From an uncultured bacterium (GTDB lineage Bacteria; Eisenbacteria; RBG-16-71-46; CAZAMP01), in NCBI GenBank assembly GCA_964486455.1, contig CAZAMP010000018.1, positions 14,971 to 78,970 on the forward strand: 64,000 bases of DNA, in the 5' to 3' direction. Shown piece after piece: positions 13,221 through 32,425 of the stretch. The notes below the pieces were generated by a model. It worked only from the letters and a program-made list of their open reading frames with translations. It was not told the origin of the DNA and did no database searches. Each line of letters starts with the position of its first letter. Position 1 is the first letter of the stretch. Position numbers and translations under genes: made by a program.

Positions 13221-14216
13221 TTATTGCTCGCCGCGCTCGGCGTACTGAAGGGTGGTAACGGGAAGCTGGTCGCGGATCTCTCTCGCGAGAAGCTCCGTGA
13301 ACAGCGTCGAGCCGCGGCTGTTCAGATGGCTTCGATCGCGGAAGAACTCCGGATCCTGAAATGACGGATGGGCGGTCCCGTCGACCGCGAGGTACGGGAC
13401 ACATTCTTCGCGGGCCAGCGCGGTGTAGGCGGTTCGGGCCGGTCCGGCGTCGTGCTCCTCCGGATCATCCGCCCCCCGGTCACGGTGCTCGAAGCGCGGG
13501 CTCGTCACCAGCACCACCTGAACGCCGTGCTCCCGCGCCGTGGCGATGAAGTCGCGATACGTCTCGATGAGCTCGGGCCGAATCTCGGGCGGCGTCTCCC
13601 CCGCGTTCCTCCGGGCCTGCTCCTCGAGCTCATGCGCTTGCATCGTCCCGTCGAGCGGCACGAAGCCATCGTATCCCTTCTCGTTCGGGAACGAGAGATT
13701 GCGAACGATCGGCCCGATCAACGAATTGTAGCGGTAGATCCATGACTGAAGCTTGAAACCCGCAAACCGCCCGGCACCCTCAAGGATCTCATCGACGTCC
13801 GGGTTTCGGCCGTAGTAGGGCGCGAACATCGAGGCGCGCGTGGCGTCCTGCCGGTAGAGATCGCGCGGTTCCGTGTGGAGGATGAAGAGCTTCGCCGAGT
13901 TTTCACGGTCGAGCAGCAGAGACTGAAGCATGCGTCCGTAGAGGATCCCCTGCCCGTCACACCCCGCGTTGTATGCCGTGTATCCCAGCTCCCGCGTGAG
14001 CACGCGCGGATCGATGTGGTGGACCGCTCTCGAGCTTCCGAAGATGAAGATCTCGGCATCGCTCTGATCACACGCACGGTTGATGAGACCGACCGTCTCT
14101 CCGGTCTTGACCTTAGTGAGCGCGGACCGGAGGAGCAGCCCGACCGCCCGATCGATGATCACGAGACCGGCTATGAAGATCAGACTGCTGATGATTGCCC
14201 TGCGCCACATGTTCAT
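13221..14216 (-). CDS. Membrane-anchored SGNH/DltD-AlgX-like protein, probable periplasmic partner of the MBOAT O-acyltransferase
   Basis: N-terminal TM anchor, IFIFGSSRA motif (DltD-like GSS), located immediately downstream of the MBOAT gene on the same strand. Confidence 0.5.
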   Translation of the reverse strand: MNMWRRAIISSLIFIAGLVIIDRAVGLLLRSALTKVKTGETVGLINRACDQSDAEIFIFGSSRAVHHIDPRVLTRELGYTAYNAGCDGQGILYGRMLQSLLLDRENSAKLFILHTEPRDLYRQDATRASMFAPYYGRNPDVDEILEGAGRFAGFKLQSWIYRYNSLIGPIVRNLSFPNEKGYDGFVPLDGTMQAHELEEQARRNAGETPPEIRPELIETYRDFIATAREHGVQVVLVTSPRFEHRDRGADDPEEHDAGPARTAYTALAREECVPYLAVDGTAHPSFQDPEFFRDRSHLNSRGSTLFTELLAREIRDQLPVTTLQYAERGEQ

Positions 14217-14252: not shown

Positions 14253-15677
14253 CTAGAACTGGAAGTAGATGAACTGGCTTCCCCCGTCCACCGCGAGGAG
14301 GCCAATACCGACGATCAGACCATACCAGCACGCCCACCGAAGCCCTATCGGATAGCGCGCGATCGTCTCGCGCACGCTTCCCACCCGCTCCTGCATGACG
14401 TGCACGGCGAGGAGGATCGCGACGCCAAGCGTACCGTAGGTGAGCGTCATCGGATCAATGAACGGTTTGCCCGTCTCGGTCAGGATGCTCGCAATGATCG
14501 TCGTCGCGTCCGAGAGCGATCCCGCCCTGAAGAATATCCAGCTGAGGCACACCAGATGGAACGTTCCGACGATGCGGATCCCGTCCCACAGCCAGTTCAG
14601 CGATTTCGTCCGGTCGTAAAGACGCTGGATCATGGGATCGGTCATCCGCGAGATCGACAGCATCACGCCCTGGAGCCCGCCCCAGATCACGAAGTTCCAG
14701 CTCGCGCCGTGCCAGAGCCCGCCGAGAAGCATCGTGATCATCAGGTTCACGTAGGTGCGGTTCACGCCGTAGCGGTTGCCGCCCAGCGGAATGTAGAGAT
14801 AGTCCCGAAGCCACGACGAAAGCGAGATGTGCCACCGCCTCCAGAAATCCGTGATGCTCGTCGCGAAGTAAGGGCGGCGGAAGTTCAACATGATGTCGTA
14901 ACCGAGCACGCGCGCCGATCCGATGGCGATGTCGGAATAGCCCGAGAAGTCGCAGTAGATCTGAAACGCGAAGAGGTACGTCGCCAGCAAGAACGACGGC
15001 CCCTCGTGCGCGGGTACGTTGTTGTAGATCGAGTCCACGTAGAGTGCCAGCCGGTCGGCGATGACGACCTTCTTGAACAGCCCCCAGAGGACGAGCTGGA
15101 GTCCGCTCGTCACGCGGTGCCAGTCGATCCGTTTGACCCGATCGATCTGAGGCAGGAGGTTTTTCGCCCGCTCGATGGGCCCAGCGACGAGCTGCGGGAA
15201 GAATGCCACGTAGAGCGCGAAGCGCCCGAAGTGCCGCTCGGGCTCGATCTTCTTGCGATAGAGATCGATCGTGTAGCTCAGGGTCTGGAACGTGTAGAAG
15301 GAAATGCCGACCGGGAGCAGCACGTGGAGCGGTGGGACACTCCAGTTGAGCCCGATCGACGTGCAGAACTGCATCGCGCTCTCGTTGAAGAAATTCCAGT
15401 ACTTGAACGCGAAGAGCAGCCCGAGGTTCGTCGTGAGGCTGGCCAGAAGAAGCAAGCGCCGCCCCCGCGGTGATGGCTCTCTCGCCATCCCGAGACCGGC
15501 GAAGTAGTCGACGACGGTCGATAGAATGATCAGCCCGATATACGCCGCGTTCCAGCTCATGTAGAAGAAGTAGCTGGCCACGAGCAGCATGACCCAACGG
15601 AAGCGATGCGGCAGGAGGAAGTGCAACGCGACCACGGTCGGGAAGAAGAGCAGATACTCTATCGAGTTGAATAGCAT
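14253..15677 (-). CDS. MBOAT family O-acyltransferase (AlgI/DltB-like)
   Basis: Start trimmed to MLFNSIEYLLFF, the canonical MBOAT N-terminus. The conserved His region WHISLSSWLRDYLYIPLGGNR is present. The 30 codons upstream in the called ORF are unlikely to be coding. Confidence 0.8.
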   Translation of the reverse strand: MLFNSIEYLLFFPTVVALHFLLPHRFRWVMLLVASYFFYMSWNAAYIGLIILSTVVDYFAGLGMAREPSPRGRRLLLLASLTTNLGLLFAFKYWNFFNESAMQFCTSIGLNWSVPPLHVLLPVGISFYTFQTLSYTIDLYRKKIEPERHFGRFALYVAFFPQLVAGPIERAKNLLPQIDRVKRIDWHRVTSGLQLVLWGLFKKVVIADRLALYVDSIYNNVPAHEGPSFLLATYLFAFQIYCDFSGYSDIAIGSARVLGYDIMLNFRRPYFATSITDFWRRWHISLSSWLRDYLYIPLGGNRYGVNRTYVNLMITMLLGGLWHGASWNFVIWGGLQGVMLSISRMTDPMIQRLYDRTKSLNWLWDGIRIVGTFHLVCLSWIFFRAGSLSDATTIIASILTETGKPFIDPMTLTYGTLGVAILLAVHVMQERVGSVRETIARYPIGLRWACWYGLIVGIGLLAVDGGSQFIYFQF

Positions 15678-15930
15678 GCGATTCCTCGGTGATGGCCCTG
15701 CTGGAACAGTAGGCCGTCGCGCCGATCTCCGTCCGCGGTCGTAACGATCATGGACCCCGTGACACACATAATGATAGATCTAACTATCGACCTAAAAGCG
15801 TGCGAAGATTAGCCCAAGCATCCGAGAGATCCAAGCGGGGCTGGCGACCAATGGCATCCCCGTGATATTCAGATGGGCAACTCTACATACGATAACCGGG
15901 AAGCGACCGAGCCAGGAGTAGCGTGAGCGA

Positions 15931-17469
15931 ATGGGACTTCAGGCACGAACGTTCGACAACCTGGATGCGCTCGAGCCGATGGCCGACGCGTGGAACGCGC
16001 TTCCGCCGGCCCGCGGCCTCCATGCGGACATCTTCGACAGCCATGCCTGGTTCTCGACGTGGATGGAAGCCCACGGCCCGAAGCCGGGCTCGGTGCTTTC
16101 GATCCCCGCCGTGATCGAGGGGGACGCCCCGCGGGCACTCTTGCCCCTTCTCCGTCATCCGTCGGGCCGATTCGAGGGGGCCGGCGTGGGGGTGCGGCCG
16201 AGATACCGCCCCATCATCGGAACGGAGGAGCCCGATCCGGAAGCGTTTGGTCTCCTGACCGACGAGGTCGCCCGCGCGGGCGCAAAGGATCTCACGATCC
16301 TGAATCTCCCGTCACGGGACCCCGCCACCGAGGCGCTCCGGAGCGCGCTCGAGAAGTCCGGCTACCGCGTCCTCATCCGCGAGGGCAAGGAAGAGTGCAT
16401 CGCGAGCGTGGCCGACAGCTGGGACCTACACCGAAAGCCGCTCAAGAGTGTCGAGAAGAACGTCAAGCGATCGGTCAACCGCGCCAAGCGGCTGGGCGAG
16501 CTCGAGCTGGAGACGTTCGTCCCCGGTGGACGTCCGGCGCGGGATGCGCTTCAGACCTACGTGGACCTTCATCCCCATAGCTGGAAAGGCGCGGCCCCCG
16601 AGTCCACGGTAATCCGCTGGCAGGGCCTCATGGACCGAACCCAGCCGCTCGACTGGCCGCACGCGTACGTGCTCAAGATCTCCGGCATTCCGGCGGCGGC
16701 CATCACGTTCTTCTGCGTCGGCCCCGTCGCGATCGGCTATCGGAACGTCTACGACCAGCGAATGGCCGCGATCAGTCCCGGATCGATCCTCATGTGGTGG
16801 GCCCACGAGGACCTCATCAAACGGGTGCCGCTCAAGACGATCGACTACTTACCCGGGCGCGGCGCGCAGAAAGACCACTTCACCCAGATGTGCCCGAGAC
16901 TCTTGCTTCTGGAAGCCGTGAAGAAGACCGTTCTCTCCCCGCTCCTCTTTCCACTTCGGCGACAGCTTCGTCGGCTGCAACGTGCGAGAAGGGCCCGGCA
17001 GACGGACCAGCGCTGGCAGAAACCCGAGGAGACGGCTTCCGCCGAGACGCACACTCGGACGGTCACGGCGGAAGGGAAAGCCGCCGGTTACTCTATCTCG
17101 CCCCTCGAGATCGACAAGACGATCGAGCTGTACCTCTCGGTGTCGGGCCGCCACCGCGGCCTCAAGCAGATGACCGACCTCTGGTCGGAAGGAGACAGCT
17201 GGTGGCAGATCGGTGACGATCAAAGCGGAGAGTTGCCGATCGCTCTCGTCCGGCTGGGGTCTGATGCCGAGACGCCAAGACTGGTCCGGGAGATCATCCT
17301 CGTCGCCGGCGAAGCGGAGACAATCGACGGGGTGATCGAATCTCTCGCCACGGGCGTCGGCTCACCGGTCACGGCCGTGTTGCCCGACGAGCAGGGCGAG
17401 GCGGGGATACCGATTCCGGTGCACGAGGCGATCTTGCCCTGGCCCGAGCAATCCAAGTCACCCGCGTGA
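15931..17469 (+). CDS. CelD/FemAB-like transferase with a conserved C-terminal extension (paralog B)
   Basis: Collinear with 11448..12971 (DSHAWFSTWMEAHGP...; C-terminus SEGDSWWQIGD...LVREIILV...ILPWPE). Confidence 0.7.
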   Translation: MGLQARTFDNLDALEPMADAWNALPPARGLHADIFDSHAWFSTWMEAHGPKPGSVLSIPAVIEGDAPRALLPLLRHPSGRFEGAGVGVRPRYRPIIGTEEPDPEAFGLLTDEVARAGAKDLTILNLPSRDPATEALRSALEKSGYRVLIREGKEECIASVADSWDLHRKPLKSVEKNVKRSVNRAKRLGELELETFVPGGRPARDALQTYVDLHPHSWKGAAPESTVIRWQGLMDRTQPLDWPHAYVLKISGIPAAAITFFCVGPVAIGYRNVYDQRMAAISPGSILMWWAHEDLIKRVPLKTIDYLPGRGAQKDHFTQMCPRLLLLEAVKKTVLSPLLFPLRRQLRRLQRARRARQTDQRWQKPEETASAETHTRTVTAEGKAAGYSISPLEIDKTIELYLSVSGRHRGLKQMTDLWSEGDSWWQIGDDQSGELPIALVRLGSDAETPRLVREIILVAGEAETIDGVIESLATGVGSPVTAVLPDEQGEAGIPIPVHEAILPWPEQSKSPA

Positions 17470-17489: not shown

Positions 17490-18569
17490 CTACCTGAGCA
17501 ACCGCCGCTTGAGCGTCATCGCCTGCCGCATGAGATCCAGCACCGCCTTGCTCACCGGACGGAGTGTCTTCTGCCACGACCCGATCATGTGAACGTAGTC
17601 GCCCGCGAACTCGTGCTTGAACTTCCAGACGGTGAAGTTCGGGTGCTCCGGCTCCGGCTCGGGGCCGGGGCTCCCACCGAAGTTGTAGATTCGCTTCCCC
17701 AGCGAGCGATAGCGGCACATGGCCGTGTAGTGGAGAAACTGACCGGTTTGCGGACAGCCCTTCTCCCGCGCGGCGTCGAGCAGCGCCCCCCAGTGGTAGA
17801 TGGGATTCCCGGTGGCGCCCACGTAGAGATAATTCCGCGGCACGTCGCTGTATCGGGCCACGTAGAGATCGCCCAAACCAGCGCGTGAGAGAGGCAGGAG
17901 CACCTCGCGCGCGAACTCCTCGGGCAGCACTTCGAGCCCCTTGCGGCCGACCATCCCGCGATGGGCTGCGCCGAATGCCTCGTGATCCTCGGGAGAGTCC
18001 GTCCGCTCGACGACGAGCCCTTCTCTGATCGCCTTTCGGATGTGGCGCCGCGGGTTCTTGCCGAACCCCTTGAGCAACTCATCCTCCGAATCGGCGGTGA
18101 GATCGACGAAGTACGTGCCGAGTGGCGAGGCGAAGTCGAAGCCCGCGTTGCGCAACACCGCCTGAAGCGGCTCAGCATACGCGACCGGCGACCCTCCGAT
18201 CTGCCGGGGAATCTGGAGCGAGATCTCGACGACCGACGCGCGCAGCTCGGAAGCGCGTTCGAGGAGCGCCCCGAGAAAGCTCTCGAGGGTCGTCGGATCG
18301 GCCGGATCCGCTAGCGCGATCCCGCCGGACGTGCGAACGAACGGTCCCACGCCCACCCCGGGATCGCGGATGGCGAGAAGCGCGGCGGCCGTGAACGCGA
18401 CGCCGCCTTCACATGCGAGTATCTCCGCGCGGTGGCCGTAGAGATCCAGGGCGCGGGTGTAGAACGACGACTGCCGAACGGTCGAGCTGTCGACCGTCTG
18501 GAGCCATGCGTCCCAATCGTCGTATCGGTCGGGTGACAGAATGGTCATGTTGCTCCCGCTATGGCTCAT
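17490..18569 (-). CDS. FemAB-family protein (aminoacyl-transferase-like GNAT tandem fold)
   Basis: 359 aa with a C-terminal KFKHEFAGDY motif typical of the FemAB family. Last gene of the AsnB-CE4-GT4-FemAB operon. Confidence 0.65.
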   Translation of the reverse strand: MSHSGSNMTILSPDRYDDWDAWLQTVDSSTVRQSSFYTRALDLYGHRAEILACEGGVAFTAAALLAIRDPGVGVGPFVRTSGGIALADPADPTTLESFLGALLERASELRASVVEISLQIPRQIGGSPVAYAEPLQAVLRNAGFDFASPLGTYFVDLTADSEDELLKGFGKNPRRHIRKAIREGLVVERTDSPEDHEAFGAAHRGMVGRKGLEVLPEEFAREVLLPLSRAGLGDLYVARYSDVPRNYLYVGATGNPIYHWGALLDAAREKGCPQTGQFLHYTAMCRYRSLGKRIYNFGGSPGPEPEPEHPNFTVWKFKHEFAGDYVHMIGSWQKTLRPVSKAVLDLMRQAMTLKRRLLR

Positions 18570-19636
18570 GTCAGAAGCGCCTTATAGAATTCATGGTAGC
18601 GTGAAACCATCCGCGCAAGCGTGTATTCGTTCTCGACCCGGTTGCGGGCCGCCCGCGCGAGGCCGCGTGCCTTCTCCGGATCGTCCAGTAGTGATCGTAT
18701 GCCTGTCGCAATAGCGCCGGCGTCGGGCTCGACGAGTAGGCCGGCCTCTCCATCCGCAAGCACCTCTCGATTCCCGCCTACATCGGTGGCAACGATGGGA
18801 AGTCCCAGCGCCATCGCTTCGAGAAGCGCGTTGGACATGCCTTCCGATCGACTCGGCAACACGAAGAGATCGAGCGTCGGCAGGAATGACAGCGCGTCGA
18901 CGTCGTCCAGAAATTCCACGCCCTTGTCGGCGGTGTGGCGTTCCCGAAGTGCGGCTCCCCACGCGCGATCGGCCGGGCCGCCCATCTTGAGCGTCGCGTC
19001 GGGGCGATCCAACCGTGCGAACGCGTCGAGCAACAGGTCGGATCCCTTGACGGGACGAAGCCGGCCCAGTGTTCCGATCACGCGGAGCGTGTCGGGCACC
19101 GGGGTCGTCTCGGGAAATCCCGCGAGGTCGATTCCGTTAGGGATGACCGCCGACCGCTTTCGAGAAAGACCTTCCGTCTTGACGGCGAACGACTTGGTTG
19201 CCTGCGACACGCAGACGACGCGATCCACGAAGTTGTTCGCGAGTCTGTAGTAGTAGTGACGTCGGCGGACCGGTTGATTCCCTCGGCGACTCGTCACCAC
19301 CCGCATTCGCCCGCGTGGGATCGGGAAGATCGCCGCGAAAACATCGCACGGGAAACCGTACGCATGGAGCACATCCGGACGCGTTCGCGCCAGCAGCGAC
19401 CGCAGCCGCGAGCGCAGGCCGAGCACCCCAGCCAACCCCGGCTGATAGCCGAGCTCGTGAACCTCGACTCCCGAATCGCGAATGACGTCGAGCAGCTCGC
19501 CCCGCTCATGGAATACGATGAGTTCGGGCGCGATCCGATCGCGATCGAGGGCGGGCAGCAACCGGGCGAGGTGCGACTCCGCCCCACCGGTGGTGAGGTC
19601 CTGAATGAAGTACGCCACGCGAATCGGTTCTGTCAC
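18566..19636 (-). CDS. GT4 glycosyltransferase
   Basis: IRVAYFIQDLTTGGAESHLARLL N-terminus (also the pattern of PEP-CTERM-associated sugar transferases) and C-terminal EGMSNALLEAMALGLPIVATDVGGNREV. Shares 4 nt with the downstream gene. Confidence 0.75.
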   Translation of the reverse strand: MTEPIRVAYFIQDLTTGGAESHLARLLPALDRDRIAPELIVFHERGELLDVIRDSGVEVHELGYQPGLAGVLGLRSRLRSLLARTRPDVLHAYGFPCDVFAAIFPIPRGRMRVVTSRRGNQPVRRRHYYYRLANNFVDRVVCVSQATKSFAVKTEGLSRKRSAVIPNGIDLAGFPETTPVPDTLRVIGTLGRLRPVKGSDLLLDAFARLDRPDATLKMGGPADRAWGAALRERHTADKGVEFLDDVDALSFLPTLDLFVLPSRSEGMSNALLEAMALGLPIVATDVGGNREVLADGEAGLLVEPDAGAIATGIRSLLDDPEKARGLARAARNRVENEYTLARMVSRYHEFYKALLT

Positions 19637-19637
19637 G

Positions 19638-20633
19638 TTACCCCGTCCCCAGGACGCGGATCAGCATCCGTCCCTGTTCCTCGGAGTTCACGCCGAAACG
19701 GCGCAGCGCGAACGGGTCGCAGTCGGCCCGCACGATACCGCTTTGCGACGTGGTTGCGGTGCGGTAGCCGGCGCGCTCCACCATTGCCCGCACCGCGGCG
19801 TTCTCGTGTTGTCCGCTCCCCGGGTTCGGATAGGAGAAGTGGGTCACGGGACGTCCGATGACCTTCTCGAGGACGGCGCGGCTCTCGATGATCTCACGCT
19901 CGGCCTCGACGAGCGAAACGGCGGTCAGCAGTGGATGTGTGCACGTGTGCGCGCCGATCGTCATTCCGGCGTCGGCCATCTCTCGAAGCTCGTCGGCGGT
20001 CATCATGATTCCGGCATCGTCGGGACGTCCGTTTCCGGACCACGCGACGAGCGCGTCGAGGGCCTCTTCGCGCTCGGGCGCGGAGATCCCGCGAAGCCAC
20101 TGCGTGAGCCGGCGCGTGGACGCGCCCTTCGCCGCCGGGTTCGAGAGATCAACCTCGACGGGTGCCGGACACTCGCCGCGCGGCGAGAACCCGCCGGCGA
20201 AGAGCTGCATCAGCCTCACCGTCCAGACGGCGGGCGCGGGTGAAATGGAGTCCGAAACGATGTAGAACGTCGCCGTCGCCCCATGGCGGCGGAGAATGGG
20301 CAAGGCGTACTGGTAGTTGTCGCGATAGCCGTCGTCGAAGGTGATCACGACCCCGGGGCGCGACCCGGCGGGGCGACCCTTCTCCAGTCGGTCCATCGCG
20401 TCATCCAAGCTGATGATGTCGTAGTGTGACGCGATGCGCTCGATCTGCTCATCGAAGCGCTCGGGATCGAGGCAGATCGTCGTCGAGACGTAGGTCGCCT
20501 CGTCCTGCGGCGCGACGGAGTGGTAGCGCAGGATGATCGTGTTGTGTCGCGAGAAACGGACCTTCGCCACGGCGGACGAGTAGATCATGAACCGCTTCGC
20601 GCGGATCGCGGCCATCCGCATGGGTGATGGCAT
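19638..20633 (-). CDS. Polysaccharide deacetylase (CE4 / NodB homology domain)
   Basis: VITFDDGYRDNYQYALPILRRHGATATFYI (NodB motifs TFDDG and H-x4-H context) and a C-terminal FSYPNPG. Confidence 0.75.
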   Translation of the reverse strand: MPSPMRMAAIRAKRFMIYSSAVAKVRFSRHNTIILRYHSVAPQDEATYVSTTICLDPERFDEQIERIASHYDIISLDDAMDRLEKGRPAGSRPGVVITFDDGYRDNYQYALPILRRHGATATFYIVSDSISPAPAVWTVRLMQLFAGGFSPRGECPAPVEVDLSNPAAKGASTRRLTQWLRGISAPEREEALDALVAWSGNGRPDDAGIMMTADELREMADAGMTIGAHTCTHPLLTAVSLVEAEREIIESRAVLEKVIGRPVTHFSYPNPGSGQHENAAVRAMVERAGYRTATTSQSGIVRADCDPFALRRFGVNSEEQGRMLIRVLGTG

Positions 20634-20636
20634 AGG

Positions 20637-22583
20637 CTAGTGACTCACACTTTCCGCGGTTTGGGGTGACCGGGTCGATCCTGATGTCGGGCCCGATGAG
20701 AAATCCGTTTGCGTGCTCCGCAGAACATCCGTCTTGAACAGAAGCTCCATCGTCAGCACGGTCCAGAGTGCGCGCGCTTCCGCACGCGACAGGCCACCGG
20801 CGTCGGCGAACTCGGACTTGTCGAGGAGCCGCCGGACCCCCCGTCGATCGAAAATGCCACGCTCGGCGCACTCCCGCGATGCGATCACGTCCCGGTACTC
20901 GCCGAGCTTCCTCGGATCCCGGAACCACCGCGCGAGGTCGCCCACAAGCCCCCGATTCGGGATCCATTCGGAACGCGGAATGAAGTGTTCGTAGACACTT
21001 TGCTTCCAGTTCCTCCCGATCCGCTTCCCGTCGGGTCGGTTTGCGAGAAACCCCTGGGCGAACGAGAAAAGTGTAACGTCCTTCAGCGGATAGTCCAGCG
21101 CGAGTCCCAATCGGCGCGCAATGAGGCGCCGGCTGATGAGCGAGCTCGCGAAGAGATGATCATTGAACAGGCACCACCAGCTGTGCCGCTCGGCCAGACG
21201 GTGGCGGCCGACGCCGCGCGCCAGGCCGTCCGTGAAGTGCGGGGCCGGATCGAACGCGGCGCTCCGCCGCCCGAGAAGCGACATCACATTTCGGCCGTTT
21301 CGGAGCGTCCGCTCCGGGCACACCGCGATTCCGGCCAGCTCCTCGGGGCTCAGAGAGAGCAGCCACAGCGGCTCGCGGAGCCGCTTCGGTAGCCACGAGT
21401 GGATCGGGAGAAGCGCCCTGAGGGCGCGAGCGACGAGCGCTCCATGTCGCGACTGACTCGCGCGAATGGCACCGGGGCTGATCGGGGCAAACCCGGAGAT
21501 GGAGCCCGTGCCCATGTCGCCTGTCCAGAGCTGCCCCTCCCGCTGGCCCAGCTCGGAGACCGCGGCCGCCAAGAGCAAATGATTGTAGTACTTGGGTGGA
21601 AAGCCGGTGGCGGCCAGGTACGGCTCCAGGTGGCCCCGGAGATCCAGGTCCTCTTCCATGAACCGTCGGCAGGGGTAGCCGTGCCGGCGAGCGAAGTCGG
21701 CCGCGACGCGCGATTCGTCGAAGCCGGTCCGCTTGCCGATCGTAATCGCCTGGACGTCGGCACCGACCTCCGCGGCGATCGCCATGAGCACGCGGGAATC
21801 CAACCCCCCGCTCGTGAGCAGTGTCACCGCCTGGTTCGGCCTGTAGTTGACCCGAATTCGCACCGCCCGCCGGAGGAGGCCCGTGCCGAGCCGGCGATAG
21901 AGCGGATCGGAAGGGTCCTCGACCGACCCCCCGCGCATCGCGAACTCCGCCAGGTCGATCCGGTGGGGGTGCGTCTCCCCCGGCGCGACGCGGAGCATCT
22001 CATCGCAGTAAAGCCTTCTCACTCCGCGAAAGAGCGTTTGGTCATCCACGGGATTTCGGTTCACGACGTAGTCGACGACACGGCCGGCGTTGATCTCTCG
22101 GCCGAGACCTAGAGCGTCCGAGACGAGCTGTGGGGAGCTGTTCACGACGGCCGTGCCTCCCGCCGTGCCGTAGTAGAGCGTGCGTGAGGAGATCCTATCC
22201 GCGACCACGGTGACCCGAAGCGTCCCCGGAACCAGCTCTTCCCGGCTCACCGGATCGATGCCGGCGACCACGACGGCCACGAAGCGGCCGTTCGCCCGGG
22301 TCAGCTCATCCAGCACGTCGCCGGCGCCGTCACGATGGCCGAGGTGCTCGATGCCGCGGGTGCCAGCCATGTCGGGTGTGAACTCCGAGATCAGCTCGTA
22401 AACATGACCGATGACGACGATTTCCCCGTCGGCGACGGTATAGCGGGCGACCTCGGTTTCGTCGTCCGAAACCCACACGGAGGCGACGCTGGCCTGCCCG
22501 TCCCACCGTCCGACGCAGCGGGCCTTTGCCCCGCTCAAGACGGGGGTATCCTTGTCGGTCCGTGCGTGTACGAGATGGATCAC
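20637..22583 (-). CDS. Asparagine synthetase (AsnB)-family amidotransferase; N-terminal nucleophile Cys apparently absent
   Basis: PP-loop LTSGGLDSRVL is present. The glutaminase-like N-domain is present but starts MIHLVH... and no in-frame Cys2 is available upstream (a stop lies 8 codons upstream). Confidence 0.8.
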   Translation of the reverse strand: MIHLVHARTDKDTPVLSGAKARCVGRWDGQASVASVWVSDDETEVARYTVADGEIVVIGHVYELISEFTPDMAGTRGIEHLGHRDGAGDVLDELTRANGRFVAVVVAGIDPVSREELVPGTLRVTVVADRISSRTLYYGTAGGTAVVNSSPQLVSDALGLGREINAGRVVDYVVNRNPVDDQTLFRGVRRLYCDEMLRVAPGETHPHRIDLAEFAMRGGSVEDPSDPLYRRLGTGLLRRAVRIRVNYRPNQAVTLLTSGGLDSRVLMAIAAEVGADVQAITIGKRTGFDESRVAADFARRHGYPCRRFMEEDLDLRGHLEPYLAATGFPPKYYNHLLLAAAVSELGQREGQLWTGDMGTGSISGFAPISPGAIRASQSRHGALVARALRALLPIHSWLPKRLREPLWLLSLSPEELAGIAVCPERTLRNGRNVMSLLGRRSAAFDPAPHFTDGLARGVGRHRLAERHSWWCLFNDHLFASSLISRRLIARRLGLALDYPLKDVTLFSFAQGFLANRPDGKRIGRNWKQSVYEHFIPRSEWIPNRGLVGDLARWFRDPRKLGEYRDVIASRECAERGIFDRRGVRRLLDKSEFADAGGLSRAEARALWTVLTMELLFKTDVLRSTQTDFSSGPTSGSTRSPQTAESVSH

Positions 22584-22676
22584 GAGCGCGTCCTTTCGGC
22601 ATACTTATCCACCTCTACCATCGTCCTGTTCATGCCCGTTCTTGACATCGTCCACGGAGACAGGCATTACGGTGTC

Positions 22677-23882
22677 ATGAGAATCCTCTATATCGTCCAG
22701 TACTACAGCCGTCCCGACGAGCCCGGGGGCAGCCGGCCCTACCAGTTCGCCAAACACTGGACCGCAGCGGGACATGACGTGGAGATCATCACCGGCGCGG
22801 TGAACCACAAGACCGGAAAAGTCCACGAATCTGTCAGCGGTCGGCTGTCCGCGCCCGTACGGGAGGACGGCTTCACGGTGCGTCGCGTGCGGTCGTATCA
22901 CGCCTACAAAGGCAGCATGAACAAACGCTACGTCTCGTTTCTCTCCTACGCCCTGTCCGCCACGCTGATGGCCCCGCGCCGGCCGCGACCCGACGTGATC
23001 TTCGCGTCCTCGACACCGCTCACGACCGGGGCCGCGGGCGTGGTGCTCTCGAAGCTCACTGGGCTGCCGCTCGTGTTCGAGGCGCGCGACCTCTGGCCGA
23101 AAGCGGTCGTCGTCGCCGGGGTCATCGGAACGGGTTGGAAGCTCCGGGCCGCCGAAAAGATGGAGTCGTGGATCTACGACAATGCCGAGCACGTAGTGGT
23201 CGTCTCGCAAGGCGATCGGTTGGAATTGATCGAGCGTGGGCTCGACGCCGAACACGTTCACTGGGTGCCGAACGGCGTCGATGACTGGATGCTCCGGACC
23301 GATCCCCCGCCCGCGCCTGAACGAACGGGCCCGTTCGAGGTCTACTACGTCGGCGCCCACGGCAAGTGGAATCATCTCGATCGACTGCTCGACCTCGCCT
23401 CACGATGCGACGGCTCGATACGGTTCAGCCTCATCGGCGACGGCGATGTGAAGCCCGCGCTGATGGAGCGCGCCCGCCGCGACGGTCTCGCCAACGTGCG
23501 CTTCTTGGACCCGATGCCGAAGGAGCAGGCCTTCCGCGCGCTCGAGTCGGCGCATGCCACGATCGTCGTCTGCGGCACGCACGAGCACTACGAACAGTGG
23601 CTCCCCAACAAAGTTTTCGACTATCTCGCGGCGGGACGACCGATCTTCGTGCTCGGCACGGGCGAGCTGGCGCGGCTCATCGACGACGGCCGCTGTGGCC
23701 TCACGGCTCCGGCGACCGACCTCGACGGTGGGGCGGCGGCTCTCGGAACGCTGGCCGCGAGCGACAGGGCGACCCTGGACGCCATGGGGCGCGCGTCACG
23801 TTTGATCGCGGGTGACCGGTTCGCGAGGAGCATGCTGGCGGATCGGATGATCAACATCTTCGAAAACGCCCGAAGGCAATGA
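22677..23882 (+). CDS. GT4 glycosyltransferase (WcaI/WbuB-like)
   Basis: Start trimmed to MRILYIVQYYSRPDEPGGSRPYQF; the upstream 114 codons overlap the AsnB gene antisense. C-terminal GT-B domain. An alternative start is at 22632. Confidence 0.7.
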   Translation: MRILYIVQYYSRPDEPGGSRPYQFAKHWTAAGHDVEIITGAVNHKTGKVHESVSGRLSAPVREDGFTVRRVRSYHAYKGSMNKRYVSFLSYALSATLMAPRRPRPDVIFASSTPLTTGAAGVVLSKLTGLPLVFEARDLWPKAVVVAGVIGTGWKLRAAEKMESWIYDNAEHVVVVSQGDRLELIERGLDAEHVHWVPNGVDDWMLRTDPPPAPERTGPFEVYYVGAHGKWNHLDRLLDLASRCDGSIRFSLIGDGDVKPALMERARRDGLANVRFLDPMPKEQAFRALESAHATIVVCGTHEHYEQWLPNKVFDYLAAGRPIFVLGTGELARLIDDGRCGLTAPATDLDGGAAALGTLAASDRATLDAMGRASRLIAGDRFARSMLADRMINIFENARRQ

Positions 23883-26278
23883 AGCCGAAGTCCACCGCCC
23901 ATCTCGCGTTCTTCCCGGTGCTCCTCCTTGCGCTCCTTGCGTCCGCCGCCTTCGCTGGTCCTTCACAGGCGGCGCCGTCGCTGGACGATCTCCCACCCCA
24001 CCCGCGCCTCTTCCTGACTCAACCTGAGCTTGCGGCGCTGCGCGCGGATTGCCTGGGCGGTTCCAAGCGAGACCTCTACGGCATGATCCGGCGCTACGCC
24101 GAGCGAAAGCTCCCCAGGAAAGGCCCGACGGACAACCCCGTCCAGGTGTCCGTCTTCGCCTTCGTCTACCTCATCGAAGAGGACATGCGCTTCGGCAAAG
24201 AGGCCGTCCTGGGACTCATGCGCGTAGTTCGGCAGAAGAAGTGGTACGCGAAGCAGGAAGGCTACCAGTTCATGCCGATGGTCTACGACCACATCTACCC
24301 ACTTCTCACGCGCGCTCAGATCGATTCGGTGATCAGAGTGGCGCGGCTCAGGGTCAAGCCCGGACACTACGCGAAGTCGCCCTACTACAACCTCGAGGCG
24401 AACGCCGCGGCGAGCTGCGTCGTCAACGGCATCACGTTCTTCGGCGACGGAGACGCGTCATCGGACCGCCACTTCCGGGAGACGTTCGTCAACGGCTTCA
24501 ACAGATTGGCCGGCGAGGGAACGCATCACCCCGACACCGGAAGCGCCGAGCTTCGCGGCGGCGTGCTCCGCACGCGCCTCCACTACGCGCGCGACGGTGG
24601 CTACCACAAGGACCGCGCATACACGTGCAAGGATCTCGCGAGCCTGGTTCACTTCGCCGAGGCGATGCGCGCTCTGGGACTCTTCGACGCGTACGCGTTC
24701 GCGCGTGACTACTACGTCAACGTCGTCGACTACCTGCTCTGGATCACACGGCCCGACGGCACCGGGCTTCGCCAAACCACGGGACAGGGGCACCGGAGGC
24801 TCACGCCGCGCGGCTACGAGGCGCTCGCCGGGATCGGGCGTCAGTTCCGCCTGGGCAAAACCGCGTGGATGATCGATAACCGGTTGCTCGGAGACGGCGT
24901 CCCGCCCGCCTACGAGGCGGTTCTCTTCTGCATCCTCTGGGATCCGATGCTCGCTCCGGAGCCCCCCACGGTCGAGTCGATGGGAACGAGCAAAGCATTC
25001 AACGGCGGCGCGGCGCGATACGTCTATCGATCGGGATGGGACGTATCACCCGAGAGCCGGGACTTCGTCTTTCACATCGATGCGTCCGACTACATGGGTG
25101 ACAACGTCTACTGGACCGTCGGCGGGTTCGAGATCTTCTATCGCGGCGCGCTTGCCATCAAGTCCGGCAACTACGCCGCGTTCGACGATCACTACGGCCA
25201 CTACAACACGGCGACCATCTCCGCGAACTGCGTGATCGTCCGTGACGACGGGCAGAAGGAGATCCGAGATCGCAGCGGGCAGGACAACATCAGAAAGAGC
25301 ATCGGGCGGCCGGAGAAGCTCGGCGACGTTGCCGAGGGGAGTGTGCTCGATCGCGCGCGGATCGACTCCGTACGCACTCGCGTCGCGGGCGGACGCGAGT
25401 GGAGCCTGGTCTCGGTCACGCTTCGGCCGAAAGCGATCTACGTCAAGACAAAGAAGGCGGAAAGCTGGATCCGGCGCGTGCTCGTCACCGACGGCATCGC
25501 GGTGATCTACGATCGCGTGAAGGCCCGCGACGCGGACTTCCCGATCAGCTGGCTTCTGCACACCGTCGAGGAACCGGTCGTGAGCGGAGCGATATCGGAC
25601 GTGGACGTGCCGGGGCATATCAGCTGGCACGCGGGAGACACGTTTCATGTCACGCGCTCGATGCCGATCGAAAGCTCACCGAACGGAGGGAACCTTCACG
25701 GGACGAGGCTTCTGCCGCGGCATGCGCGGACACGCAAGGTGGGAGGCGACGGCTATTCGTTCTGGGTGGACAGCGCGCACCCCGTTCCCGGCGCTCAGCC
25801 GATGGGGCGGAACTTCGAAATCGGGCGGCCGGAAGTACGCTACAGCCGGCGCGAGGCGGGCGCCTGGCGGCTCGAGATCCACCCCATCGAGCCCGGGCCG
25901 GCGCAGGAGTTCCTCGTCGCGCTGCAGGCGAGCGACGAGGAGTATGGCGATACCTTCCAGCTCGTGCTGGACGCGGAAACCGCCGGCTTCGTGCACGACG
26001 GCGTGATGCTCGGGTTCTCGCGTACCGACCCTCCGCCGGAAAGACCTTCTTATCGACTGCACGGCGACGCGGAGCTGATCCTGCTGTTCGATTTGGCGCC
26101 GAGGACGGCGTACCGCATGGAGATCATCGACGAGAGCGACTCGACGGGGATGATGGTGAAGGGTCTCGCGAATCTGATGGAGCTACGAAGCGATGACCGG
26201 GGATGCGCAGTCGGCGAGATTCAGTTGCCGGCTGGAACTCGGTTCCGGCTGGATCCGCTCAAGGACGCTCTGCCGTAA
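23879..26278 (+). CDS. Secreted heparinase II/III-like family protein (second copy)
   Basis: Signal peptide (LAFFPVLLLALLASAAFAGPSQA). Central region SDYMGDNVYWTVGGFEIFYRGALAIKSGNY...DDHYGHYNTATISANCVIV resembles the heparinase II/III C-domain motif. 4-nt overlap with the upstream GT4. Confidence 0.6.
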   Translation: MKPKSTAHLAFFPVLLLALLASAAFAGPSQAAPSLDDLPPHPRLFLTQPELAALRADCLGGSKRDLYGMIRRYAERKLPRKGPTDNPVQVSVFAFVYLIEEDMRFGKEAVLGLMRVVRQKKWYAKQEGYQFMPMVYDHIYPLLTRAQIDSVIRVARLRVKPGHYAKSPYYNLEANAAASCVVNGITFFGDGDASSDRHFRETFVNGFNRLAGEGTHHPDTGSAELRGGVLRTRLHYARDGGYHKDRAYTCKDLASLVHFAEAMRALGLFDAYAFARDYYVNVVDYLLWITRPDGTGLRQTTGQGHRRLTPRGYEALAGIGRQFRLGKTAWMIDNRLLGDGVPPAYEAVLFCILWDPMLAPEPPTVESMGTSKAFNGGAARYVYRSGWDVSPESRDFVFHIDASDYMGDNVYWTVGGFEIFYRGALAIKSGNYAAFDDHYGHYNTATISANCVIVRDDGQKEIRDRSGQDNIRKSIGRPEKLGDVAEGSVLDRARIDSVRTRVAGGREWSLVSVTLRPKAIYVKTKKAESWIRRVLVTDGIAVIYDRVKARDADFPISWLLHTVEEPVVSGAISDVDVPGHISWHAGDTFHVTRSMPIESSPNGGNLHGTRLLPRHARTRKVGGDGYSFWVDSAHPVPGAQPMGRNFEIGRPEVRYSRREAGAWRLEIHPIEPGPAQEFLVALQASDEEYGDTFQLVLDAETAGFVHDGVMLGFSRTDPPPERPSYRLHGDAELILLFDLAPRTAYRMEIIDESDSTGMMVKGLANLMELRSDDRGCAVGEIQLPAGTRFRLDPLKDALP

Positions 26279-28259
26279 GGCCGGCGTCTTCCCAAGTGAA
26301 ACGGTAGATGCTCGTCGCTCCGTCGGGCGATACGAAATCGGCGGGACGATCGGACAGCAGCGACTGAAGCGACGGGTCCATCTTCTCGCTTTCACTCTTG
26401 AGGTGAGATCCCTTGGCAAACACCCAGACCACCGGCCACTTCTCGCAGTATGCCAGGAAATCGTCCAGCGTCGGGATCAACTCGGCGCTCAGGTAGATAT
26501 CTCGGATCGTGCCGAGCGAATCCACGTAGGCCTGACGGCCCCACCCCCGCCAACGTGTCCATGCATCGACCCGCTCCAGATAAGCGTAGGTCATGAGCCA
26601 GTCCGTCGCCACAACCCTATCACCGGGTTCCAACCGCGGCCGCAGCCATTCCACGGCGCTCTCGATGTCCCACGCCACCCGCGTGCCGGGGGTCCACCAG
26701 TCCTCACCGGTCTCACGAGTCACGTAGGCCGTCGACTTCTGCAGAACCCCACCCATGAGAAACGCGATAGCGGCGAGCGCGGTCACGGCGATCGGCATGG
26801 GCGCGGTCCGAGGCCCGCCCCGCGAAACGAGCTGGTTGAGCCAGTCGAGACCCCGCACGACCGACCAGCCGGCGAGAAGCCCCCAAAGCGGCCAGATCTC
26901 GACGAGAAACCGGGCCTGCGTCTTCCACGTGAGAAGCCCGCGGGTCAAGAGCAGGAGGATCACCGCCAGTAGAAGAAAGCGCTCTCCAAACGTTGCGTTC
27001 CCCCGCCAGGCGCGAACGGTGATCGCCACCGCACCCGCGCAGGCCGCGATGCCGACCGGCAGCGCATCGAGGAGGTAGCTGAGGTAGCGTGCCGGCCAAC
27101 GCAGGATGATCTCGACGGAATCACGGAGTCCACAACCCATGGACTTGGCGGCGACAACCCAGACGATCCCCGCGATCATGACGGTGACGAGCCCGATCGC
27201 AAGCGCCCGTGATCCCGTCGGGCCCGGAAAGAGTTCGTCCTTGTGAAGAATCAGGATCACCATGGCGGCGACGGCCACGCCCACTTGATGCACTCCGGCG
27301 GCCGCGAGTGCGAACGCGAGGCCGAGCATGCCGAGAAGTCGAGTGAGCCACGGCCGCCCGCGGGTCGCCGAGATGGCCACGACGGCGAACACAACGGCGA
27401 AGACGACGCCCAGCGCGTAAGGGCCGATGTCCCCGATCAGCATCGTCGACAGCGCCCACGGATCCTGGGAGAGCGTATCCTGAATCGGCTGAGAGGCGAC
27501 CTTCTCGGCAATGTCGGGAACCGGTTCCACCGCATTCTCATGGCCGCCCATGAACGCGCTCCGGTTCCAGGCCTGGTGCCACTTGGCGACGGCGATCAAC
27601 ACCGTCGCCGACACCAATACGGAAAGGCGCATGCGCCATGATGACCACCGAACGAGTACCGGGATGAAAAGCACGCATAATGTCCCGCCTAGCTGGTGCG
27701 CCCCCATCGACAGTAGGACCAATGCAGAGGCTATCCAGAGATCGCGGTGCTTCCCCGATTCCCAGAGCCGATACACCGCGAACATCGCCAACATCGCGAG
27801 AAGTGAGTAGAGCGAGTACATGCGGACGTATCGCCCAAGCATGACCTCTTCCCACACAACGGCGAAGATCACCGCGCCCGCGACAGCGCTCCACGCTCCA
27901 ACCCATGGCCGACCGAGTCGGAGCACCGCCACCCCACCGAGCACCGAGAAAAAGATCGACACGAGACGCGGCAGCCAGTCCGTATGCGTGGCCGCGAGCG
28001 GCGCGATCACATAGTGATAGAGCGGGGCCCGGAGGTAGAGATGACCGGAGGGGAGCTGGGGCTCTCCGGTCTCGGCGATCCCACGCGCGACGATCGTGCT
28101 GATATCCTCGTCACCGTGAAGTCCCTGCCGATCCAGGAAAGGCAGACGGAAGAGCAGCATCAGGAGGATCACCGCCAGGAGGATCCCCCATCCCATTCGC
28201 GTGGTTGGAGCGGTCACACTGCTCATTCGGCTTCCTTGTTCACCCGCCGGACCTGCCAA
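26259..28259 (-). CDS. GT-C family glycosyltransferase (ArnT/PMT-like, polyprenyl-phosphate-sugar dependent) with C-terminal periplasmic domain
   Basis: 666 aa with more than 10 TM helices. First periplasmic loop LHGDEDISTIVARGIAETG carries the DE/DD motif of GT39/GT83. Overlaps the upstream CE4 gene by 20 nt. Confidence 0.6.
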   Translation of the reverse strand: MAGPAGEQGSRMSSVTAPTTRMGWGILLAVILLMLLFRLPFLDRQGLHGDEDISTIVARGIAETGEPQLPSGHLYLRAPLYHYVIAPLAATHTDWLPRLVSIFFSVLGGVAVLRLGRPWVGAWSAVAGAVIFAVVWEEVMLGRYVRMYSLYSLLAMLAMFAVYRLWESGKHRDLWIASALVLLSMGAHQLGGTLCVLFIPVLVRWSSWRMRLSVLVSATVLIAVAKWHQAWNRSAFMGGHENAVEPVPDIAEKVASQPIQDTLSQDPWALSTMLIGDIGPYALGVVFAVVFAVVAISATRGRPWLTRLLGMLGLAFALAAAGVHQVGVAVAAMVILILHKDELFPGPTGSRALAIGLVTVMIAGIVWVVAAKSMGCGLRDSVEIILRWPARYLSYLLDALPVGIAACAGAVAITVRAWRGNATFGERFLLLAVILLLLTRGLLTWKTQARFLVEIWPLWGLLAGWSVVRGLDWLNQLVSRGGPRTAPMPIAVTALAAIAFLMGGVLQKSTAYVTRETGEDWWTPGTRVAWDIESAVEWLRPRLEPGDRVVATDWLMTYAYLERVDAWTRWRGWGRQAYVDSLGTIRDIYLSAELIPTLDDFLAYCEKWPVVWVFAKGSHLKSESEKMDPSLQSLLSDRPADFVSPDGATSIYRFTWEDAGLTAERP

Positions 28260-29280
28260 ACCTCAAGTTTCGTAACAGCAGGACGTCAAAAACCCCCAGC
28301 AACTCCGCTTCGAAGAGCGTCCAGGAGAAGTCCCTTCCCGTCAGTGAGTACTTCGGCTCACTGACCCCGATTCTTGGGATTCGAAATGGATCCGAGCGCA
28401 ATGAATAGTAGCCTTTCTCCGTCGTGAAAGCGTAAGTGAATCCGGCGCCTCGGACCCGATCCACGATTCGATCGTCGTGGCTCCCATTGGGATAGGCGAA
28501 GAGCTCGAGCCCACTCCCCAGTCGCTCGGACAGATCGTTTCGGCATCCGTCGATCTCGCCTTCCAGCTCGGCACCGGTGCAGTGGGTCAGAATGGCGTGG
28601 GCGCGGCCGTGACCGGCGAATTCCGCCCCTTCGCCGAGCATGGCGCGGGCCTGGTCGAACGTCATGGCCTGGGGAACCTCGTGAGGGTCGATCCGCGCCG
28701 CCGCCGTGACGATCAGCTCCCGTACCTCATCGCGAAGCGCGGAGTACGGCAGCCCCTTCAGCCGAGCGATGGCCGACTCCGCCGCATGCCCGTACGTGGC
28801 CTCCCCTACGCCACTGACCGGATAGGCCGAGCCACCTTCCGGGCGGTGAGTGGCGGCCACGATCTCCCACCAGAGCGGGGAGATCCCGGCGACGAATTCC
28901 GTGGTGAGGCAAAATATGGCCGTGGCGCCGACCTCACGAAGAATGGGCCAGGCGTTGACGGCATTGTCGAGATAGCCATCGTCGAACGTGATGGCCATAT
29001 GCGGGCGGGGGTCGCCGCGCCGGGCGGCCGACACGCAATCCTCCCACGGGGCGACTCGGTATCGCCGGGTGACCTCCGCGACCAGCTTCGCGAATAGCTC
29101 GGTCGGCACGCCCATCGGAACGCGGGCGTCCGGATCGCCGTCGACCCGATGCAGCCAGAGAACGGGAATCTGCCCTCGCCGCGCGCGATGACGCCTGAGC
29201 CAGCGCAATATGCCGGTGGCACGGAGAACGGCGGCAATGATCCATTTGACCAGCTGCACCGCTCTCTGGAAGCTTCCCAT
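28240..29280 (-). CDS. Polysaccharide deacetylase (CE4 / NodB domain)
   Basis: ITFDDGYLDNAVNAWPILREVGATAIFCL and FAYPNGSHDDRIV motifs. Confidence 0.7.
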   Translation of the reverse strand: MGSFQRAVQLVKWIIAAVLRATGILRWLRRHRARRGQIPVLWLHRVDGDPDARVPMGVPTELFAKLVAEVTRRYRVAPWEDCVSAARRGDPRPHMAITFDDGYLDNAVNAWPILREVGATAIFCLTTEFVAGISPLWWEIVAATHRPEGGSAYPVSGVGEATYGHAAESAIARLKGLPYSALRDEVRELIVTAAARIDPHEVPQAMTFDQARAMLGEGAEFAGHGRAHAILTHCTGAELEGEIDGCRNDLSERLGSGLELFAYPNGSHDDRIVDRVRGAGFTYAFTTEKGYYSLRSDPFRIPRIGVSEPKYSLTGRDFSWTLFEAELLGVFDVLLLRNLRFGRSGG

Positions 29281-32218: not shown

Positions 32219-32425
32219 CCGCGGCCGGAGACGGCCGTCGGACGCCCCGTGCAGAGCGATGGTGGCCGCGATAGGTTGACGATTTTTCGCAAGTCGGTAT
32301 AGAATCTATTGACAGTAGATCCCCCTCATCGACCGATCGCCGGTGAGCCGGAACGCCTCGGCTTTGGTGTAACCGGTTACGTAACAACGGATTGCTTGTC
32401 TGCGCCCCGCAACTTCGGAGGGAAA

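Follow-up and report, generated by a model that had tools for sequence, protein, structure and literature searches.

What is to be made of a set of genes that encodes the enzyme classes of an exosortase-associated cassette in a place where no exosortase is seen? The question is raised by an operon of four genes (positions 17490-22583, minus strand) in a 64,000-nucleotide stretch of DNA from an uncultured bacterium, the whole of which is called here the window. Its genes encode, from first to last, a protein resembling asparagine synthetase (AsnB-like), a de-N-acetylase of family CE4, a glycosyltransferase of family GT4, and a putative aminoacyl transferase of the Fem type (Fem-like). A preliminary description of this DNA had seen in this combination the hallmark of the exopolysaccharide (EPS) loci associated with exosortase A. 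It left two possibilities: Either the exosortase lies outside of the window, or the genes operate independently of the sorting of PEP-CTERM proteins. The analysis reported here favors the second. The operon is read, with a probability of roughly 0.55, as a cytoplasmic module that tailors and transfers a sugar for a surface glycan exported by a Wzx flippase, independent of any exosortase.

The AsnB-like gene comes first in the operon (20637-22583, minus). Its product of 648 amino acids appears to combine an adenylating AsnB fold with a degenerate, glutaminase-like N-terminal domain. Next comes the gene for the NodB-type CE4 protein (19638-20633, minus; 331 amino acids, or 327 with an alternative start at 20621), then that for the GT4 protein, a predicted retaining glycosyltransferase and distant relative of the TIGR03088 family "stp2" (18566-19636, minus; 356 amino acids). 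The gene for the Fem-like protein, with a tandem GNAT architecture (17490-18569, minus; 359 amino acids), is last. Read from the sequence, the junctions are, in this order, a 3-nucleotide gap, a 1-nucleotide gap, and a 4-nucleotide ATGA overlap between the stop of the GT4 gene and the start of the Fem-like gene. These agree with the preliminary description, as do the Pfam assignments for all four of its enzyme classes (asparagine synthase, NodB deacetylase, sugar transferase, and FemAB). An independent metagenome gene call places the CE4 start 12 nucleotides later, to give a gap of 15 nucleotides; the junction is still tight. The GC content at third codon positions in the four open reading frames (ORFs) is 0.74-0.86, which, in a window with 64% GC overall, is typical of real genes.

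Such spacing suggests, of course, a single transcript. A scan of the operon for promoter and terminator consensus sequences was uninformative. No sigma-70 consensus was found in the 48-nucleotide intergenic region (22584-22631) that separates the operon from a divergent GT4 gene, where promoters are presumed from position only. Thus, the case for a single transcript draws on the gene spacing and on the order CE4, GT4, Fem-like, which is kept in a related locus (L013, described below). The 4-nucleotide overlap of the GT4 and Fem-like genes, in turn, suggests translational coupling. At the downstream border, a convergent gene of the Acetyltransf_6 family ends 20 nucleotides away. With a divergent gene on one side and a convergent gene on the other, the operon is a self-contained block of four genes. 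Rfam and tRNA scans found nothing. Neither a signal peptide nor a true transmembrane (TM) segment is predicted in any of the four proteins. This implies that all four steps are cytoplasmic and precede flipping by Wzx, a location that suits enzymes dependent on ATP and aminoacyl-tRNA, both of which are cytoplasmic.

For exactly these four classes, NCBIfam holds curated models for XrtA/PEP-CTERM-associated subfamilies (TIGR03108, TIGR03006, TIGR03088, and TIGR03019). To this extent the term "hallmark set" in the preliminary description was well chosen. The operon's own proteins, however, score far under the cut-offs of these models. The AsnB-like protein reaches 50.4 bits against TIGR03108 (cut-off 816.9) in a partial match of residues 125-303, the CE4 protein 19.7 bits against TIGR03006 (cut-off 276.2), the GT4 protein 151.5 bits against TIGR03088 over its full length (cut-off 409.05), and the Fem-like protein 18.8 bits against TIGR03019 (E 6.9e-4; cut-off 260.35). 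As none of the four reaches its cut-off, the operon proteins are not members of the exosortase-associated subfamilies, and this part of the earlier proposal falls. As grounds against its proposal, the preliminary description had named such low scores together with clustering among generic housekeeping homologs. The latter is not seen; the proteins form rare clades of their own inside Wzx-type glycan loci.

Nor was an exosortase found in the DNA surrounding the operon, of which about 75 kb of contig were examined in total. Pfam detected no exosortase domain in any of the window's main ORFs, nor did NCBIfam among the window proteins scanned, which included every unannotated or polytopic membrane protein. 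Precomputed Pfam annotations, which cover 10 kb on the left side of the window and the 2 kb between it and the contig end on the right, show none either. A C-terminal regular expression for the PEP-CTERM tail (PEP motif, TM helix, basic tail) found no match in ORFs of at least 50 amino acids in the six frames of the window. Seven related loci were also inspected, four holding relatives of the Fem-like protein (L013, L014, L015, and L017) and three holding relatives of the AsnB-like protein (L004 and L005 among them); in all seven, no exosortase lies within 10 kb. A 666-amino acid protein with 10 TM segments (26259-28259) was considered as a hidden exosortase and rejected, as it has weak matches only to PMT_2 and Agl23-type GT-C proteins. 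The earlier picture of a Wzx-type locus with no visible exosortase is therefore correct, the flippase being encoded at 2980-4428.

It might be argued, nevertheless, that the operon is a divergent but genuine XrtA/PEP-CTERM EPS cassette, with the genes for its exosortase and its PEP-CTERM substrates in another part of the genome. The XrtA-associated models are, after all, the top NCBIfam match for three of the four proteins (AsnB-like, GT4, and Fem-like). Further, the locus of one relative, L004, has a deacetylase with the CE4+DUF3473 architecture, typical of XrtA-associated deacetylases, and the visible genome is only about 75 kb. Against this stand scores that are 2.7- to 16-fold under the curated cut-offs, together with the empty searches of the window, its flanks, and the related loci. 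Bona fide PEP-CTERM systems usually hold epsH/xrtA in the same cluster. The exosortase gene is reported to adjoin the enzyme set in Nitrosomonas eutropha and to be similarly arranged in two further species, of Nitrosococcus and Desulfovibrio (PMC7468200). A hidden exosortase is, on this evidence, improbable.

Independence from the exosortase is favored further because the same enzyme set has published precedents in species that lack an exosortase and with a type IX sortase. When Haft et al. (2006) defined the PEP-CTERM/EpsH system, the glycosyltransferase, deacetylase, and sugar-transferase families that correlate with EpsH had strong homologs in PEP-CTERM-negative genomes; EpsH alone was exclusive to PEP-CTERM genomes (PMC1569441). 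Pairs of vimA and vimE genes are found in exosortase-less species of Pseudomonas, Aeromonas, and Vibrio (PMC7468200). As the enzyme set occurs with type IX secretion as well as with exosortases, a missing exosortase is no paradox.

The precedent from type IX secretion, and the analogue with the best experimental grounding, is a pathway known as Wbp/Vim in Porphyromonas gingivalis and Tannerella forsythia, which makes a linking sugar and is encoded by a vimA-vimE-vimF operon together with wbpS (Veith et al., 2020, PMC7468200; PMC13086638). Here, VimE, a CE4 protein, is proposed to remove the N-acetyl group at C-2. VimA, which matches TIGR03019, determines whether serine or glycine is installed, as shown by interspecies complementation. 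VimF, a GT4 protein encoded beside VimA and VimE, is proposed to transfer the finished sugar (PMC7468200, PMC13086638). The AsnB-type WbpS makes a uronamide, as shown by mass spectrometry of a mutant, and is not essential for attachment of the cargo (PMC7468200, PMC13086638). The Wbp genes are dispersed in P. gingivalis under separate locus tags (PMC13086638).

What, then, might the four proteins of the operon do? The Fem-like protein is matched by Pfam to FemAB (40.5 bits, gathering threshold 24) and to Acetyltransf_6 (33 bits). A profile of its family matches Staphylococcus aureus FemX (6snr) at E 2.6e-18, and also the FemX of Weissella and a newly solved aminoacyl-tRNA-dependent peptide synthase. 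An AlphaFold2 model (predicted local distance difference test score 91, predicted template-modelling score 0.88) was compared with the PDB by Foldseek. Its best 11 matches are all aminoacyl-tRNA-dependent transferases, namely FemX, FemA, Weissella FemX, and Sbb17/Sba18, of which the last act on an amino-sugar substrate. The match to Weissella FemX has template-modelling scores of 0.77/0.82 and a root-mean-square deviation of 3.1 Å. Lower ranks hold aminoacyl-phosphatidylglycerol synthases, and then GNATs that use acetyl-CoA. The motif W-K-F-K-x-E-F is invariant in the family and aligns with the FemX motif "WAFKKVW," whose Phe-Lys pair is presumably important for catalysis in the Weissella enzyme. 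From the ranking of its structural neighbors only, the Fem-like protein would use an aminoacyl-tRNA as its acyl donor. Only two loci came out of a metagenome scan with the Fem-like alignment, and one of these is a fragment of 2.5 kb.

Such neighbors also suggest a quite different role, in the remodelling of the cell wall, either its peptidoglycan or a wall polymer. Peptidoglycan is the target of well-known Fem transferases, AsnB-like amidotransferases, and CE4 deacetylases (FemX, LtsA/AsnB1, and PgdA, respectively). The solved structures nearest to the Fem-like protein are those of enzymes with peptidoglycan precursors as substrates, and a neighboring MBOAT protein best matches DltB (161.9 bits, under the cut-off of 375). 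The operon lies, however, inside a locus of Wzx, multiple GT4, and lyase genes, with no genes for peptidoglycan synthesis nearby, and the conserved partner of the Fem-like gene is a GT4 gene, not a Mur or Mra gene. Further, PgdA-type enzymes are extracytoplasmic, and the operon CE4 has no export signal. A cell wall role is therefore very improbable.

In the AsnB-like protein, Pfam detects Asn_synthase in residues 236-304 only, the PP-loop region (42.4 bits, gathering threshold 21), and finds no GATase domain. The PP-loop itself is present as SGGLDS at residues 258-263, with TGD at 354-356 in place of the canonical SGE. The pattern S-x-G-x-D-S is invariant in a six-member alignment; in an alignment of ten sequences the conservation of its Asp is 90%, with Glu in a single member. 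The Cys nucleophile (in an MCGI start), RGPD, and NGE[IV]Y are absent from all seven clade members aligned, and three outgroups (P0026, P0029, and P0031) start with MCGI and carry both of the other motifs. The nearest outgroups best match TIGR03108, the branch of WbpS/WbqG-type polysaccharide amidotransferases, at 304-580 bits, whereas the clade itself reaches 28-50 bits.

This clade is very rare. HMMER, run exhaustively over 1.84 billion cluster representatives, found only 10 proteins at E <= 1e-30, the full-length members scoring at least 531 bits and the next full-length protein 108 bits. A scan of 185,579 species-representative genomes in GTDB gave one distant match, at 25% identity. A family profile found nothing among PDB sequences at E <= 0.01. 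The AlphaFold2 model (predicted template-modelling score 0.75), however, matches the full two-domain AsnB fold by Foldseek, with TsnB9, beta-lactam synthetase, carbapenam synthetase, and AsnB at the top. By its motifs and its modelled fold, then, the protein is an ATP-dependent enzyme that adenylates a carboxylate, predicted to be unable to draw ammonia from glutamine by an N-terminal nucleophile mechanism. Intermolecular amidation is as likely for it as ring closure. Among three relatives examined, two are in polysaccharide loci with glycosyltransferase, CE4, Acetyltransf_6, ATP-grasp, or AMP-binding genes.

The two remaining proteins are more ordinary. The CE4 protein matches Polysacc_deac_1 in two stretches (85.6 bits) and has its motifs intact (TFDD at 98, HTCTH at 229, and RPVTHFSYP); among NCBIfam models, those for PgaB and PdaB outscore TIGR03006. 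The GT4 protein matches Glycos_transf_1 (110 bits) and Glyco_transf_4 (75 bits) and carries the EX7E motif at 265-273. Its best match, as noted above, is to TIGR03088, along the entire length of that model.

Is this a functional unit, or merely four EPS genes that have come to lie side by side, with no coupled chemistry? Chance must be considered, as the locus is rich in such genes, with five for GT4 proteins, two for CE4 proteins, and five for acyltransferases of the Acetyltransf_6 family, and the AsnB-like gene comes and goes between loci. For the Fem-like protein, a word-indexed search gave eleven relatives, at 47-68% identity, and three long contigs that carry such relatives were examined in detail. 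In L013, the orthologs of the GT4 and Fem-like proteins are 62% and 66% identical to those of the operon, and a CE4 gene in the same position encodes a protein 67% identical to the operon CE4. In L014 the corresponding values are 56% and 55%, with a deacetylase-type gene of the DUF2334 family; in L015 they are 53% and 48%, with a longer CE4. In L013 and L015, the gene just upstream of the Fem-like ortholog is the GT4 ortholog; in L014 the distance is two genes. A Wzx gene is within the examined stretch of both L014 and L015, and L013 is syntenic with the Wzx-containing locus of the window. Thus, the GT4 and Fem-like pair with a deacetylase-type gene recurs in three otherwise different loci, at 48-67% identity. 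Together with the start/stop overlap that suggests coupled translation, this leaves very little room for adjacency by chance.

What is conserved, then, is a core consisting of the GT4 and Fem-like pair with a deacetylase-type gene, for it is these genes that recur in Wzx loci whose other content is rearranged. An amidotransferase-type partner varies from locus to locus and is optional. The locus L013 (GCA_975963955.1, contig CDLTLD010000104.1, 1701-13351) shows this well, as it shares with the window eight genes, 59-70% identical and in the same order, and is cleanly without the AsnB-like gene. It also lacks the pair of MBOAT and GDSL genes described below. This makes it the natural comparison for the function of both accessory elements. 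Canonical AsnB genes that contain GATase are found near the relatives of the Fem-like gene in L014 and L015. These were considered as orthologs of the AsnB-like gene and rejected, as no BLAST match was found at 1e-5. Further, L014 encodes (8429-9178), between the GT4 ortholog and the DUF2334 gene, a protein of 249 amino acids. It resembles the Fem-like protein in the C-terminal half of the latter, at 31% identity, and may be a half-size GNAT partner.

From these features, a sequence of steps can be proposed. The CE4 enzyme would remove the N-acetyl group from an amino sugar, activated or lipid-linked, to expose a free amine. The Fem-type transferase would then acylate this amine with an amino acid from an aminoacyl-tRNA, and the GT4 enzyme, its conserved partner, would move the sugar into a repeat unit linked to undecaprenol. 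As an optional decoration, the AsnB-fold enzyme that lacks a glutaminase would adenylate a carboxylate with ATP and couple it to ammonia or to another amine; the carboxylate would most likely be that of a uronic acid or of the newly installed amino acid. The finished unit would then be flipped by Wzx. The substrates, the order of the steps, and the product are all inferred.

Some observations weigh against this scheme. The contig has, by Pfam, no dehydrogenase that forms a uronic acid, and none of the Wbp genes (WbpA/B/E/D). The tandem-GNAT fold includes users of acetyl-CoA, which are among the lower-ranked matches of the Fem-like protein. In L017, another Wzx locus, whose Fem-like protein is 46% identical, the GT4 ortholog is no longer next to the Fem-like gene. 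Last, the relative of the AsnB-like protein in L005 is outside of any glycan locus. The first of these makes the carboxylate substrate of the AsnB-like protein conjectural. Specifically, Pfam found no UDP-sugar dehydrogenase, no oxidoreductase of the GFO/IDH/MocA (WbpB) type, no DegT-type aminotransferase, and no hexapeptide acetyltransferase in the window or its left flank. Because the Wbp genes are dispersed in P. gingivalis, of course, their absence from this locus does not prove their absence from the genome.

A more specific view, a special case of the reading preferred here with a defined biological role, is that the operon is the counterpart of vimA/vimE/vimF (and wbpS), making an aminoacyl linking sugar whose free amine accepts, on the surface glycan, the C-termini of cargo exported by a type IX secretion system (T9SS). 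Two secreted proteases with T9SS type A C-terminal sorting domains are indeed encoded 10-14 kb downstream. One is trypsin-like (32309-34147, plus; TIGR04183, 33.8 bits against a cut-off of 23; Por_Secre_tail and FlgD_ig), and the other a subtilase (36201-38396, plus; TIGR04183, 25.2 bits against 23; Peptidase_S8 and FlgD_ig). As both pass the cut-off for TIGR04183, the organism probably has a T9SS. By class, the four enzymes correspond to those of the Wbp/Vim pathway (PMC7468200, PMC13086638), the product expected from a Fem fold is aminoacylated and has its alpha-amine free, and the AsnB-type step is dispensable, as is WbpS. Conversely, no T9SS machinery (PorU/V/Z and others) is encoded in the roughly 75 kb seen, and the locus holds no Wbp genes. 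The vim operon of P. gingivalis is small and is not inside a 40-kb locus with many glycosyltransferases and five Acetyltransf_6 paralogs. Further, the AsnB-like protein is not of the WbpS type, having no glutaminase and 50 bits where the cut-off is 817. On balance, a role in anchoring T9SS cargo is unlikely.

A second kind of C-terminal tail is also found in the window. Four proteins with signal peptides share a motif at their extreme C-termini, with no TM helix after it (41999-43258, minus; 43449-44636, minus; 44761-45438, plus; and 590-1702, minus). Two are beta-helix proteins, one has no assigned family, and one is a PelZ-like lyase. The strict form of the tail is ...CGTSPVE[KD]STWG[QR][VI]KA.[FY], with looser forms ...RSWSRIKSHYR and ...GWGALKGRFRR. 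Among the sorting-domain models of NCBIfam there is no match for it, and it may be a sorting or anchoring tag that has yet to be curated.

It is tempting, if speculative and on balance doubtful, to suppose that the free alpha-amine of the operon's aminoacyl sugar is the acceptor nucleophile by which the T9SS proteases, or the proteins with the [ST]WGx[IV]Kxx[FY] tail, are anchored to the Wzx-exported glycan. Were this so, the Fem, CE4, and GT4 enzymes (with or without the AsnB-type enzyme) would be a general kit for making acceptor sugars, common to exosortase systems, T9SS sortases, and possibly other systems of C-terminal sorting; the AsnB-like enzyme that lacks a glutaminase would ligate to the sugar an amine other than ammonia.

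The glycan locus around the operon runs from before the start of the window to about 31.4 kb. It encodes the Wzx-type flippase (2980-4428, plus; Polysacc_synt_3, E 9.8e-14; 12 predicted TM segments), five GT4 proteins, one GT2 protein, two CE4 proteins, an NAD-dependent epimerase, a GT-C-like protein with 10 TM segments, an MBOAT protein with a GDSL-like partner, three secreted lyase-like proteins, and four further Acetyltransf_6 paralogs. The GT4 gene divergent from the operon (22632-23882, plus) is WcaI-like, with Pfam GT4 domains and 101 bits against a subfamily model of the WcaI family, and has an ortholog at the same position in L013 (70% identity). On the left side of the window, a further 10 kb of contig hold an ATP-grasp-like gene, genes for a DUF218 protein, a phosphodiesterase, another GT4, and a GMC oxidoreductase, and one for an LPG_synthase_TM protein. 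To the right, the contig, a metagenome scaffold of 80.6 kb, ends about 2 kb past the window. One ORF of 821 amino acids (4374-6839, minus) is a read-through artefact. The real GT4 gene is only its 3' part, from 4374 to a start near 5630-5700, to which the metagenome gene call assigns 431 amino acids. Its 5' part overlaps a genuine GT4 gene on the plus strand at 5712-6941.

For a single glycan locus, the density of putative acyl and aminoacyl transferases is unusually high. Besides the Fem-like gene, Acetyltransf_6 (PF13480) paralogs are at 83-544, 1743-2906, 11448-12971, and 15931-17469 (+), with a further site in the left flank (L007, 11159-12223). Two copies, of 507 and 512 amino acids, are 44% identical to each other, flank the MBOAT/GDSL pair, and are both kept in L013 (59-60% identity). 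The Fem-like gene was considered as one more of these paralogs; this was rejected, as BLAST finds no relationship (E > 0.1). The MBOAT and membrane-anchored GDSL/SGNH-like genes are adjacent (13221-14216, minus, and 14253-15767, minus), and resemble O-acylation systems in the style of AlgI/AlgJ, PatA/PatB, or DltB/DltD.

Three secreted proteins without Pfam domains (7618-10326, plus; 23879-26278, plus; and 590-1702, minus) have distant similarity to polysaccharide lyases, two to the heparinase HepB (18 and 64 bits) and one to PelZ (65 bits), and are probably glycan-processing enzymes of the locus. The one of 902 amino acids is kept in L013 at 59% identity. The second CE4 of the locus (28240-29280, minus) has an N-terminal TM segment and keeps TFDD, but the canonical H[ST]xxH motif for metal binding is missing, in contrast to the operon CE4, with its intact motifs and no export signal. 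It may act outside of the cytoplasm, or have an altered catalysis.

The larger point concerns annotation. The enzyme set that has been treated as an exosortase hallmark is probably a portable kit for aminoacylating sugars, also found in plain Wzx-type loci of uncultured bacteria. Thus, annotators should not infer PEP-CTERM sorting from the four classes alone. The conserved pair of GT4 and Fem-like genes probably installs sugars that bear amino acids, and the very rare AsnB-fold clade is predicted to have given up glutamine hydrolysis. Should the aminoacyl sugar prove to be an acceptor that anchors proteins, as in Porphyromonas, then T9SS, exosortase, and related systems would share a single biosynthetic logic for attaching proteins to the surface.

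How does the operon compare with systems already known? With the XrtA/PEP-CTERM EPS genes it shares the four enzyme classes. It differs from them in the distance of its proteins from the curated subfamilies, in having no exosortase or PEP-CTERM protein nearby, and in the loss of the glutaminase from its amidotransferase. For two of its proteins, comparison may also be made with enzymes from outside of glycan loci. The Fem-like protein shares the tandem-GNAT fold with the Fem family (S. aureus FemX and FemA, Weissella viridescens FemX, and Sbb17/Sba18), at about 16% identity; it has no coiled-coil insertion of the S. aureus type, and its context is a polysaccharide locus, unlike the peptidoglycan or antibiotic biosynthesis of the others. 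The AsnB-like protein, like the beta-lactam and carbapenam synthetases, has a two-domain AsnB fold that keeps the PP-loop and has lost the N-terminal Cys nucleophile. Those enzymes work without hydrolyzing glutamine, and it may be similar in principle, although the identity is just 12-15% and the gene is in a glycan locus, not a beta-lactam cluster.

With the Wbp/Vim pathway, taken from its published description, the correspondence is by class throughout, with a Fem/GNAT transferase, a CE4 enzyme, an adjacent GT4, and an enzyme of the AsnB family. It would extend to the logic, in which a sugar is deacetylated, N-aminoacylated, and transferred, with an optional amidation of a carboxyl group, on a glycan of the Wzx/Wzy type. 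Even the optional status of the AsnB-like gene, which is absent in L013, is parallel to that of WbpS, which is not essential in P. gingivalis (PMC13086638). The differences are also clear. The AsnB-like protein has neither the glutaminase nucleophile nor the signature motifs of WbpS-type enzymes of the TIGR03108 family, against which it scores 50 bits. All four genes are in one operon, inside a glycan locus of more than 40 kb that is rich in acyltransferases; no Wbp genes are local; and the host is an uncultured lineage with 64% GC, not one of the oral Bacteroidota. What is new relative to the known examples is, thus, the glutaminase-less AsnB clade, the single four-gene operon, the absence of local Wbp genes, and the large locus rich in acyltransferases. 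The best reading by analogy is that the operon is a member of a broader kind of system that deacetylates, N-aminoacylates, and transfers a sugar, one functionally analogous to vimA/vimE/vimF and wbpS.

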